Positions 13,055 to 15,193 of a DNA stretch of 54,464 nucleotides are shown piece by piece. A program made the position numbers and the translations under genes. The notes below the pieces were generated by a model that was given only the letters and a program-made list of their open reading frames with translations, made no database searches and was not told the origin of the DNA. The stretch is from positions 1 to 54,464 of the forward strand of contig LBYF01000003.1 of NCBI GenBank assembly GCA_000996025.1. Direction: 5' to 3'. Source of the stretch: Parcubacteria group bacterium GW2011_GWA2_40_14 (GTDB taxonomy: Bacteria > Patescibacteriota > Minisyncoccia > Phycocordibacterales > DATDWN01). Positions within the stretch are counted from its first letter, which is position 1. Each line of letters opens with the position of its first letter.

Positions 13055-15193
13055 TTATTTTCCACTATTTAGCTTTTTTGTCAATTCTACAATCTCATCA
13101 CGCAAAAGTGCGGCGGTTTCAAAATCTAAAATTTTGACGGCGGATTCCATTTGTTTTTCTTTTTGTTTTATCAGTTTCTGCGGGTCTTTTTCAAAAAGTT
13201 TTGCGTCAAGTTTTAGAAGCTCGTCTAGAGTTTTCTGGTGCTCGGATTTCATCTGGTCAGTAATATCTTGTATCTTTTTTATGATTGTTTTTGGTGTAAT
13301 GCCGTGCTTTTTGTTATAGGCAATCTGAAGATCACGACGACGATTTGTTTCACTTATCGCATATTGCATTGAGCCAGTCATATGATCCGCGTATAAAATA
13401 ACTTTACCGAGAACATTTCTGGCGGCACGGCCAATGATTTGGATAAGTGAAGTTTCACTTCTCAAAAATCCTTCCTTATCCGCATCCAAAATGCCAATAA
13501 GAGTAACTTCGGGTAGGTCCAGTCCTTCTCGCAGAAGGTTCACACCAACAATGACATCAAATTTACCTCGTCTAAACTCTGTCAGAATTTCTATTCTCTG
13601 GATTGTTTTGATATCACTGTGAAGATACTCCGCTTTAATTCCCTTCTCTTTCAGATACTCACTCAAATCCTCCGCCATTTTCTTTGTTAGAGTTGTAGCA
13701 ATTACTCTTCCACCTTTTTTAATATGTTTTTCAGCTTCAACTATAAGATCCTTAATCTGACCTGGATACTTCGTGTCAAAGACTCCCTTTGACATTTTTG
13801 AATTTATGTCAAGGATGCCCCTTGACACTATTTTTGCTAGGGTTACCCTAGTAAATTTAGGGGAACTGACAATTGGGCGGACTTCTACAACAGGGTCAAT
13901 AAGGCCTGTTGGACGGATAACTTGCTCAACCACTTGCCCTACACCCAGTGTATGGCTATGTTCTTTTTCATACTCTCCGGGAGTTGCGGAAGTGTAAATA
14001 ACCTGTCCGACACGCTTTTCAAATTCAGCAAACTTCAAAGGTCTGTTGTCTTTTGCGGATGGCAAACGGAAACCGAAATCCACGAGCGATTGCTTGCGAG
14101 AAGCATCTCCGGCATACATAGCGCCGATTTGCGGAACAGACACGTGGGACTCGTCAATGATAGTCAGAAAATCTGCACTGCCATCGGACTGATTAGGAAA
14201 GTACGAAAGCAAAGTATCTGGTGCTTCGCCCGACAGCTTTCCAGAAAAATGCCGTGAATAGTTTTCAATACCATTGCAATATCCCATTTCTCGGATAAGA
14301 GCGAGGTCGTATGTTGTACGACGCTTCAAACGTTCGGCTTCCAAAATCTTCCCTTCTTTTTCAAGTTCCTTTAATCGCACTGCCAGTTCGGCTTTGATTG
14401 ATTTGAATGCCTTTTCGCTTTGTTCTTTATTTGAAATAAAATGTTTTGCTGGAAAAAGAAATAAATTATCAAACGCCGTATCAAACGCCGAGCGTTTGAT
14501 AATTTCTCGAGTAATAGGGTTGATGTGTAAAACTTCTTTGATTTTTCCGCCTTCGATTTCAATACGGTAAATCACCTTCTCTGACACGGGCATGATTTCA
14601 ACCATGTTGCCTATTGCCCGAAACTGTCCGGGGGAAAGGTCAGCAGTCGTGCGTTCAAAATGAATATTAACAAGACGGCGAATGAAGTCGGCTCGTGAAA
14701 TGTCCTGACCCTTGACGATTTTTAGATTGACTTTTTCATACTCCACCGGAGAACCCAAACCGTAAATACAAGAGACAGAAGCCACAACAATAACATCTTT
14801 GCGAGTTAAAAGCGCCTGGGTTGAGGCGTGACGCAGACGGTCAATTTCTTCGTTTATCATGGCTTCCTTCTCTATATATGTATCAGAAACGGGCATGTAG
14901 GCCTCCGGCTGATAATAGTCATAGTAGGAAACAAAATAATGCACTGCGTTGTTTGGGAAAAATTCTCGGTACTCCTGCGCCAGCTGGGCGGCAAGAGTTT
15001 TGTTGTGAGCAATGACAAGGGTCGGCTTTTGAACCTCTTGGATAACATTAGCAATAGTAAAGGTCTTACCTGAACCTGTCACACCAAAAAGGGTCTGATG
15101 TTTCAGACCTTTTTTCACCCCAGCCACCAGCTGTGAAATTGCCTTTGGCTGATCACCTGCCGGCTCAAAATCCCGTCGTATTTGGAATTTCAT
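13055..15193 (-). CDS. uvrB: Excinuclease ABC subunit B with a ~35-aa insertion
   Basis: GVTGSGKT, DESH, helicase motifs and a C-terminal UVR domain. Carries an extra SSPKFTRVTLAKIVSRGILDINSKMSKGVFDTKYPG between the conserved EVRP and QI(K/D)DL blocks. Confidence 0.95.
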   Translation of the reverse strand: MKFQIRRDFEPAGDQPKAISQLVAGVKKGLKHQTLFGVTGSGKTFTIANVIQEVQKPTLVIAHNKTLAAQLAQEYREFFPNNAVHYFVSYYDYYQPEAYMPVSDTYIEKEAMINEEIDRLRHASTQALLTRKDVIVVASVSCIYGLGSPVEYEKVNLKIVKGQDISRADFIRRLVNIHFERTTADLSPGQFRAIGNMVEIMPVSEKVIYRIEIEGGKIKEVLHINPITREIIKRSAFDTAFDNLFLFPAKHFISNKEQSEKAFKSIKAELAVRLKELEKEGKILEAERLKRRTTYDLALIREMGYCNGIENYSRHFSGKLSGEAPDTLLSYFPNQSDGSADFLTIIDESHVSVPQIGAMYAGDASRKQSLVDFGFRLPSAKDNRPLKFAEFEKRVGQVIYTSATPGEYEKEHSHTLGVGQVVEQVIRPTGLIDPVVEVRPIVSSPKFTRVTLAKIVSRGILDINSKMSKGVFDTKYPGQIKDLIVEAEKHIKKGGRVIATTLTKKMAEDLSEYLKEKGIKAEYLHSDIKTIQRIEILTEFRRGKFDVIVGVNLLREGLDLPEVTLIGILDADKEGFLRSETSLIQIIGRAARNVLGKVILYADHMTGSMQYAISETNRRRDLQIAYNKKHGITPKTIIKKIQDITDQMKSEHQKTLDELLKLDAKLFEKDPQKLIKQKEKQMESAVKILDFETAALLRDEIVELTKKLNSGK
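13774..13851. repeat. Three adjacent palindromes making up the uvrB insertion (family A x2 plus one singleton)
   Basis: TGTCAAAG-ACTCC-CTTTGACA (13774-13794), TGTCAAGG-ATGCC-CCTTGACA (13807-13827) and CTAGGGTTACCCTAG (13837-13851). The first two recur in cysS. Confidence 0.9.

Follow-up and report, generated by a model that had tools for sequence, protein, structure and literature searches.

REP-like palindromes inside uvrB and cysS of a Parcubacteria group bacterium and their link to a RAYT-like transposase gene

Results

An in-frame insertion in uvrB shares two palindromes with cysS

We analysed a stretch of 54,464 nt from Parcubacteria group bacterium GW2011_GWA2_40_14 (the window; GenBank assembly GCA_000996025.1, contig LBYF01000003.1, positions 1 to 54,464 of the forward strand), in which the gene uvrB carries an in-frame insertion containing three palindromes, two of which belong to a family that recurs in cysS of the same contig and resembles the repetitive extragenic palindromes (REPs) of other bacteria. 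The host genes, the insertion and its palindromes are as follows; no strand is assigned to the palindromes.

13055..15193, minus strand: uvrB, the first host gene, 712 aa, identified by its open reading frame (ORF) and by homolog and structure matches
13766..13870, minus strand: composite insertion of 35 codons (105 nt, residues 442-476), VSSPKFTRVTLAKIVSRGILDINSKMSKGVFDTKY, at the helicase-half junction of uvrB
13774..13794: A-type REP-like palindrome TGTCAAAGACTCCCTTTGACA, that is TGTCAAAG-ACTCC-CTTTGACA, in uvrB, encoding (M)SKGVFD(T)
13807..13827: G-type REP-like palindrome TGTCAAGGATGCCCCTTGACA, that is TGTCAAGG-ATGCC-CCTTGACA, in uvrB, encoding (V)SRGILD(I)
13837..13851: third palindrome of the uvrB insertion, CTAGGGTTACCCTAG, an orphan outside the TGTCAARG family
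50818..52233, plus strand: cysS, the second host gene, 471 aa from the ATG at 50818 (mechanical ORF start at 50746)
51824..51844: A-type REP-like palindrome TGTCAAAG-AGTCC-CTTTGACA, in cysS, encoding MSKSPFD(T)
52057..52085 (core 52061-52081): G-type REP-like palindrome with a 12-bp stem, GGTATGTCAAGG-ATGCC-CCTTGACATACC, in cysS, encoding MSRMPLD

The window protein matched solved UvrB structures at an E-value of 2e-231, and its UvrB homologs were found in Parcubacteria/Paceibacteria at 77-88% identity, near Zambryskibacteria (Patescibacteria). Alignment to a solved UvrB (9gy7_E) left residues 442-476 unmatched between residues 427 and 428 of that structure, which is the junction of the N-terminal and C-terminal helicase halves; the insertion of about 35 residues that a preliminary description had read from the DNA is thereby confirmed, at 13766..13870. 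As single-stranded DNA, the region was predicted to fold into three separate hairpins (z = -5.4). In the AlphaFold2 model, which was weak overall (mean predicted local distance difference test score, pLDDT, of 63.7), the insert scored below 50, a low value that faintly hints at a disordered loop.

The closest UvrBs (P0003-P0005; 88-89% identity over conserved columns) read EVRPIVEKGNYPGQIK at this position and have no insert, the window protein showing a net gain of 29 aa relative to them; because they lack it, the composite insert is specific to the lineage of the window. L001 and L002, which stem from independent assemblies of this species, contain the insert as well (99.6-100% identity), and it is therefore not an assembly artefact. 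Among relatives, UvrB ranged in length from 664 to 760 aa, and the helicase-half junction was a hot spot whose inserts differed from lineage to lineage: those of L004, L006 and L008 were also encoded by hairpin-forming DNA, from other sequence families, and the syntenic relative L240 (which encodes P0006) held a single copy of the window's family at the same uvrB site, following the same ATAGTG flank. This copy, AGTGGCAAGG-ATGCC-CCTTGCCACT, carries a compensatory T>G/A>C change in its stem. A further UvrB, P0082, contained a degenerate-looking double insert peptide, VSRVPLA..MAKGTF.

The first two uvrB palindromes recur in cysS, on the opposite coding strand, as had been described: the cysS core at 52061-52081 is the same 21-mer as uvrB 13807-13827, and the other cysS copy has the loop AGTCC. 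The pattern TGTCAARG-N5-CYTTGACA had exactly four matches in the window and none in 100 dinucleotide-preserving shuffles, and the window held no degenerate copies of the family beyond chance. All four copies are read in the phase xTG TCA ARG ... YTT GAC A, which also agrees with the preliminary description. The first cysS copy lies at a variable-length site, where orthologs of the cysteinyl-tRNA synthetase (CysRS) read MSRMPLD, MSKTVFD, MSKRHFD or MSRATLD, and the second shows a net gain of about 3 aa relative to orthologs with LDKIETFEIPEN. The inserts thus occupy a domain junction and variable loops.

The palindromes belong to a family dispersed in Patescibacteria

We scanned a metagenome collection with TGTCAARGANNCCCYTTGACA, and species-representative genomes likewise; both scans took exact pattern matches, with degenerate copies falling outside the sample, and the counts of phase, orientation, spacing, pairing and host given below refer to the matches listed. 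The metagenome scan returned at least 119 loci (831 kb) with at least 168 copies of the general pattern (172 in the gene-model count), and the genome scan at least 112 loci with at least 140 copies. Both scans together gave at least 231 loci and about 300 copies or more, almost all from Patescibacteria (the Candidate Phyla Radiation, CPR). Nearly all named records among the matches listed belonged to CPR lineages (Nomura-, Zambryski-, Doudna-, Niyogi- and Paceibacteria, as well as some under the label Saccharibacteria); by our own estimate about 17 chance matches were expected in the genome scan, which fits the handful of non-CPR records. Copies at hundreds of loci, together with the empty shuffles, support the earlier claim that the repeat is neither chance nor local sequence.

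The repeat unit is a hairpin of 21 nt with an 8-bp stem and a 5-nt loop, of the pattern TGTCAARG-N5-CYTTGACA; since it spans 7 codons, its presence never shifts the reading frame. The stem position that the search pattern left free formed a Watson-Crick pair in 277 of 288 unique copies, and stems stayed perfect while loops and flanking codons diverged among orthologs. Pairs of copies no more than 60 nt apart were inverted doublets in 24 of 26 cases (modal spacings of 25 and 27 nt), and the uvrB pair of the window, 33 nt apart and in the same orientation, is one of the two exceptions. The sole signal in the flanks was a weak A at -1 and T at +1, both of which extend the palindrome, and no conserved target or cleavage tetranucleotide was seen around the copies among the matches listed. 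At gathering thresholds, Rfam identified tRNA-Trp alone in the whole window, and no RNA family over the hairpins.

A RAYT-like gene lies between copies of the same palindrome

On many contigs, two copies lie 610-670 nt apart with an ORF of 205-240 aa between them. These ORFs resemble REP-associated tyrosine transposases (RAYTs): at least 30 of them were present in 831 kb, about 22 of the 30 with the palindrome within about 50 nt, mostly on both sides, and the same arrangement of gene and palindrome occurred in 12-14 of 112 genome loci among the matches listed. The ORFs matched Pfam Y1_Tnp (PF01797) above the gathering threshold (E 1e-7 to 1e-10), their best NCBIfam match was the REP-associated tyrosine transposase, and the Joint Genome Institute name for homologs was 'REP element-mobilizing transposase RayT'. 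Alignment of 25 sequences showed no variation at the HUH histidines or at the catalytic Tyr. A phmmer search with a single RAYT-like protein against the PDB gave no match, and a profile alone reached E. coli TnpArep (4er8), the best solved structure, at an E-value of 3.5e-6 vs 0.11 for ISDra2 TnpA. Together with the inverted doublets and the paired stems, these features are what one would expect of a REP family and its RAYT; the cognate hairpin-type transposase predicted in the preliminary description is supported by RAYT-like Y1 HUH genes flanked by the same palindrome.

Some of the transposase gene copies may be in decay, because the tblastn match contained an in-frame stop in 7 of about 32 RAYT-like regions (L024, L061, L071, L092, L101, L150 and L179). 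In the Zambryskibacteria relative L006, an IS200-type TnpA gene and a RAYT-like gene stand side by side just downstream of uvrB (12469-12900 and 13026-13682). L006 also contains a polypurine palindrome family, CCCTTCCCCTT-GCR-AAGGGGAAGGG and variants, between genes and in uvrB (5412-5436, 6208-6230, 11162-11186 and 11233-11259). A rule of one RAYT per palindrome family did not emerge from this locus, where the RAYT-like gene beside uvrB is unflanked by the polypurine palindromes of that uvrB.

Copies inside genes are translated and strongly biased in phase

Using a gene model of greedy ORFs of at least 90 aa (87-89% coding), we located 97 of 172 copies of the metagenome set and 85 of 140 of the genome set within ORFs (56-61%), and about half of the unique copies lay well inside ORFs of at least 150 aa. 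Intergenic DNA was still enriched, holding 44% of the copies in 13% of the sequence (metagenome set). Host ORFs of at least 150 aa numbered 68 and proved to be genuine housekeeping genes, among them UvrD-type helicases (6), BipA (5), DNA polymerase III delta' (5), class I tRNA synthetases, Dus, UvrC, RecG and PolA, and many of them serve genome maintenance.

A gene split at a copy in the TGA-containing phase would suggest removal at the RNA level; none was found among the matches listed, and in ten cases the TGA of the palindrome merely terminates an upstream ORF. Because no gene is interrupted in this phase, the copies are translated, not removed. Two phases of the repeat are free of stops, xTG TCA ARG and TGT CAA RGN ... 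TTG ACA, and the third alone contains TGA. Single copies well inside robust hosts nevertheless used the first far more often than the second (97 vs 6), and most copies in the TGT CAA phase are the obligatory partner in a doublet spaced by 25 nt. The preliminary description had invoked selection for the one stop-free phase; the absence of TGA-phase copies from genes agrees with it, but there are two stop-free phases, and a ratio of 97 to 6 needs another cause. The favoured phase yields peptides of the MSKMPFDT or MSKGIFDT type, and the disfavoured one encodes Cys-Gln-Arg-Cys-Pro-Leu-Thr or Cys-Gln-Arg-Ala-Ser-Leu-Thr. As no target motif is visible, we infer that the bias comes from selection against Cys-Gln-Arg peptides.

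The nature of the hosts and the state of the stems also bear on an explanation in which the palindrome is kept not by transposition but as a functional DNA or RNA signal, such as an uptake-type sequence, a protein-binding site or an RNA-stability hairpin. The perfect stems beside diverging loops and flanks, the lack of degenerate window copies beyond chance and the many genome-maintenance genes among the hosts would all suit such a role, and a frame bias within coding regions is also seen for the uptake sequences of Neisseria and Pasteurellaceae, CPR bacteria being dependent on DNA uptake. The tight, two-sided association with a RAYT-like gene is, however, a hallmark of REPs and unexpected for an uptake or regulatory signal; furthermore, exact-match sampling missed degenerate copies, of which the peptide in P0082 looks like a remnant. 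We consider a functional signal of this kind quite improbable as the reason for the repeats.

No support for an orientation of the copies along the chromosome

Because the stem is a perfect palindrome, orientation is marked by the loop alone. All four window copies show the loop form A..CC on the plus strand although uvrB and cysS lie on opposite strands, from which the preliminary description had concluded that the elements are oriented relative to the chromosome. This would be expected of a strand-specific insertion mechanism, in which the chromosome or the direction of replication, and not the host gene, sets the orientation. A cognate enzyme of the Y1 HUH type would be compatible with it: Y1 transposases of the IS608/ISDra2 class act on single-stranded DNA, and IS200/IS605 types target the lagging-strand template.

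The concordance of the four copies is nonetheless not significant, because they form only two clusters (p ~0.1-0.5). Neighbouring copies on the same contig agreed no more often than by chance (13 same and 13 opposite at 61-800 nt, 7 and 4 beyond 800 nt), those around the RAYT-like gene occurred in all four orientation combinations, and single intragenic copies in the favoured phase had the loop either way round with respect to the host gene (55 to 38). The L240 copy at the uvrB site has its loop reversed relative to the gene when compared with the window, and orthologous sites in other genes differ in the same way, as might happen if the loop, the only mark of orientation, can flip. The GC skew of the window tracked gene strand and gave no replication signal. 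These results speak against orientation relative to the chromosome, and strand-specific insertion seems to us improbable.

Other palindromes and repeats of the window

Further palindromes lie in the same genes and in uvrA; again, no strand is assigned.

51844..51870: palindrome ACTGTACAAGGT-GGA-ACCTTGTACAGT, unrelated to the family, adjoining the first cysS copy
51870..51894: imperfect palindrome TTCCCCGATGTC-C-GACATAGGGGAA, in cysS, of another family present in several genomes
14479..14501: palindrome TATCAAACGC-CGA-GCGTTTGATA with an adjacent direct duplication of GGCGTTTGATA, in uvrB
13941..13951: short palindrome ACACCCAGTGT, encoding a 5-aa TLGVG insert in uvrB
12303..12325: palindrome TTGCTAACAC-TGG-GTGTTAGCAA, in uvrA, encoding LLTPSVSK

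The third palindrome of the uvrB insertion had one near match elsewhere (L209), not above chance, and for the palindrome at 51844..51870 no copy was found elsewhere. Near copies of TTCCCCGATGTC..GACATAGGGGAA were found in L078 and L157, with about 2e-4 expected by our own estimate. The uvrA palindrome has a second copy in another gene at 24461-24485 (family D6, 87% over 45 nt) and a near copy in L035; it shares its core with ACACCCAGTGT, which in L004 shows a compensatory A-T to T-A change at the same site. The palindrome at 14479..14501 encodes a 6-aa insert, SAFDTA, in this species only, and may be of local origin, one of its arms including the native-looking coding sequence ATTATCAAA. Overall, the genes of the window contained 18 perfect hairpins (stem of at least 8 bp, loop of 3-7 nt) vs 4.5 +/- 2.0 after codon shuffling. 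The grouping of unrelated palindromes at the same permissive loops suggests either that tolerant sites let such elements survive repeatedly or that hairpins favour positions beside other hairpins.

Such palindromes could also be made in place, by template switching (snap-back synthesis) at replication and with no mobile element at all. The native-looking arm at 14479-14501 with a direct duplication beside it, the uniqueness of the third uvrB palindrome and of the one at 51844-51870, and the excess of perfect hairpins over codon-shuffled genes all point that way. Template switching cannot, however, account for identical 21-mers at unlinked loci of the window and at hundreds of loci in different genomes, nor palindromes positioned around a transposase gene; it is possible for the orphan palindromes only, and as an account of the repeat family we regard it as highly improbable.

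Several other repeats were observed in the window and its relatives. A palindrome with the core TACGA-TATA-TCGTA occurs at 20469-20500, just past the end of the ORF at 20503..21741, and at 24255-24280 within the ORF at 23858..24619, as well as in the uvrC region of L240 (15967-15986); it could be an operator-like site or belong to a further repeat family. The longest hairpin of the window is a perfect 20-bp inverted repeat with a 4-nt loop, AAAAAATCATTCTGATATTC-TGCA-GAATATCAGAATGATTTTTT, at 47840-47883 between two minus-strand ORFs. Another palindrome family, with the core (A/T)GTTCAACACYSRGTGTTGAAC(A/T), was present in L004 (6966-7001), L078 (~5819), L087 (~1370) and L096 (~4675), and its centre is related to the ACACTGGGTGT core of uvrA and uvrB in the window. 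Direct repeats of 85-94 nt with 64-91% identity (families D1 and D2) lie at 27107-27200, 33080-33173 and 35117-35210, and at 28466-28550 and 30920-31004; they end in CAT followed by an AT-rich stretch and resemble 5' ends with upstream regions that paralogous minus-strand genes at 26-35 kb have in common, a segment of lower GC content (0.35-0.36).

Near uvrA, at ~12794, the window is without 101 nt that are found in L001 (2461-2560) and L002 (3235-3334), between a small ORF downstream of uvrB and uvrA. This piece comprises the 3' half of a terminator-like hairpin, AAAGGGCAC-TTCG-GTGCCCTTT, a spacer and the first six codons of uvrA; the uvrA ORF of the window consequently starts at an upstream GTG/ATG in another frame, before KKANQDL. 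Either this is a genuine deletion variant or the assembly is at fault here.

Discussion

REPs and RAYTs are well described, and the palindromic elements of Rickettsia (RPEs) are the classic case of in-frame insertion. The family in uvrB and cysS shares with the REP/REPIN-RAYT systems (E. coli REP/BIME with TnpArep, 4er8; Pseudomonas REPINs) a short dispersed palindrome (known range 20-40 nt), copies on both sides of a single Y1 HUH gene, inverted doublets, covariation in the stem and an enzyme closest to TnpArep. It differs from them in its perfectly symmetric 8-bp stem and 5-nt loop with neither an unpaired GTAG tag nor a conserved flank, in having about half of its copies inside genes where REPs are predominantly extragenic, in a transposase of 205-240 aa vs 165 aa that scores below the NCBIfam cut-off for RAYTs, and in its patescibacterial host.

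Intragenic REPs have been reported in several species of other phyla, in genes including uvrA, uvrB, uvrC, uvrD, recBCD and polA, as singles, dimers and clusters that typically insert 20-30 aa; the uvrB of R. conorii holds two single REPs, RPE-4 and RPE-6 are CGTC REPs, and Opitutus terrae has GTAG REPs (Di Nocera et al. 2013, PMC3733652). The CGTC-type architecture consists of an unpaired CGTC/TGTC tag, a stem of 8-9 bp starting with A-T pairs, a loop of 4-5 nt and a CCA tail (PMC3733652). Like these intragenic REPs and the RPEs, the repeats described here are palindromic inserts translated in frame within housekeeping genes, and their peptides are absent from orthologs. The sizes of stem and loop (8 bp and 5 nt) fit the CGTC type; the present family departs from that type in that TGTC pairs with GACA in the stem, that no conserved tail follows and that it comes with a RAYT-like gene; for the CGTC-type intragenic REPs of Rickettsia no transposase is known. 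The comparison with RPEs is one of architecture and not of sequence similarity, RPE-1 measuring 100-150 bp against a 21-nt unit here.

IS200/IS605 elements have an enzyme of the same fold class (PF01797), and the ~650-nt gene bracketed by hairpins recalls them. In IS200/IS605, however, tnpA and its distinct left and right subterminal hairpins move as one repeated unit, through single-stranded DNA, and insert beside a specific target tetra- or pentanucleotide, whereas here one palindrome serves at both ends, whichever way round, solo hairpins far outnumber gene-containing units, the profile is nearer to TnpArep than to ISDra2 TnpA, and there is no target motif. Uptake sequences (Neisseria DUS and Pasteurellaceae USS, by general knowledge) are likewise short over-represented motifs in both orientations, often in inverted pairs, frame-biased in coding regions and present in genome-maintenance genes, but they have no transposase gene and are not hairpins in themselves.

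Considering this evidence, we think it likely that the uvrB and cysS palindromes are copies of a REP-type element whose cognate RAYT-like Y1 HUH transposase is encoded elsewhere in the genomes of the lineage. If it acts in the manner of E. coli TnpArep and IS200/IS605 TnpA, the transposase would recognise the hairpin in single-stranded DNA, cut it and rejoin it, and copies would thereby spread to new sites and perhaps be excised or homogenised. Selection would then remove copies in the TGA phase and those at structurally intolerant positions, and probably also those in the phase encoding Cys-Gln-Arg-(Cys), so that the survivors, located where large proteins have linkers or variable loops, would read (M/V/L)-S-(K/R)-x-x-(F/L)-D. 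The helicase-half junction of uvrB would be one such permissive site, having received one copy in the syntenic relative and, in the window, two copies and an unrelated palindrome.

Several observations weigh against this interpretation. The transposases score 41-67 bits (best 66.6) with NCBIfam NF047646, below its curated cut-off of 80, and tblastn with five Y1 transposases found no RAYT-like gene in the 54-kb window (best E 0.8). An unpaired GTAG or CGTC tag is absent from the copies among the matches listed, and the information content of their flanks is ~0. At the two best sites the net length change is +3 and +4 codons, not +7, and because of these values and of the variable loops, clean junctions of filled against empty sites were not recovered. 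Stop codons do not account for the phase preference of 97 to 6, the third palindrome and several others are orphans or members of other families with no identified enzyme, and mobilisation by the transposase is itself argued from analogy.

A bolder variant of the REP-type interpretation would be a family without a tag, seven codons long, that uses coding sequence as its main niche in Patescibacteria, where almost no intergenic space is available, and whose RAYT maintains perfect copies within genes through re-homing, excision or conversion. The phase bias of 97 to 6 would then reflect a constraint aware of codon phase, or a function that the hairpin or its peptide has in genes of replication and repair, and not plain tolerance, and the system would be a distinct, domesticated variant of REP/RAYT. 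We hold this to be unlikely.

Intragenic REPs in repair genes have been known since 2013, and for this reason the conceptual gain is moderate: what we describe is a known phenomenon in a lineage for which our literature search found no report on RAYTs or REPINs (CPR/Patescibacteria). The finding would extend the REP/RAYT system to Patescibacteria, where the family offers unusually clean material for studying how such elements spread and how proteins tolerate them, being seven codons long, without a tag, about half translated and strongly biased in phase. The variation in UvrB length (664 to 760 aa), in an essential protein of the CPR, would be explained by small mobile hairpins and not by new domains. 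This would bear on the annotation, alignment, phylogeny and structure prediction of proteins from uncultured CPR bacteria, for which heptapeptides of the MSKMPFDT or MSKGIFDT type would provide a ready marker of such inserts.

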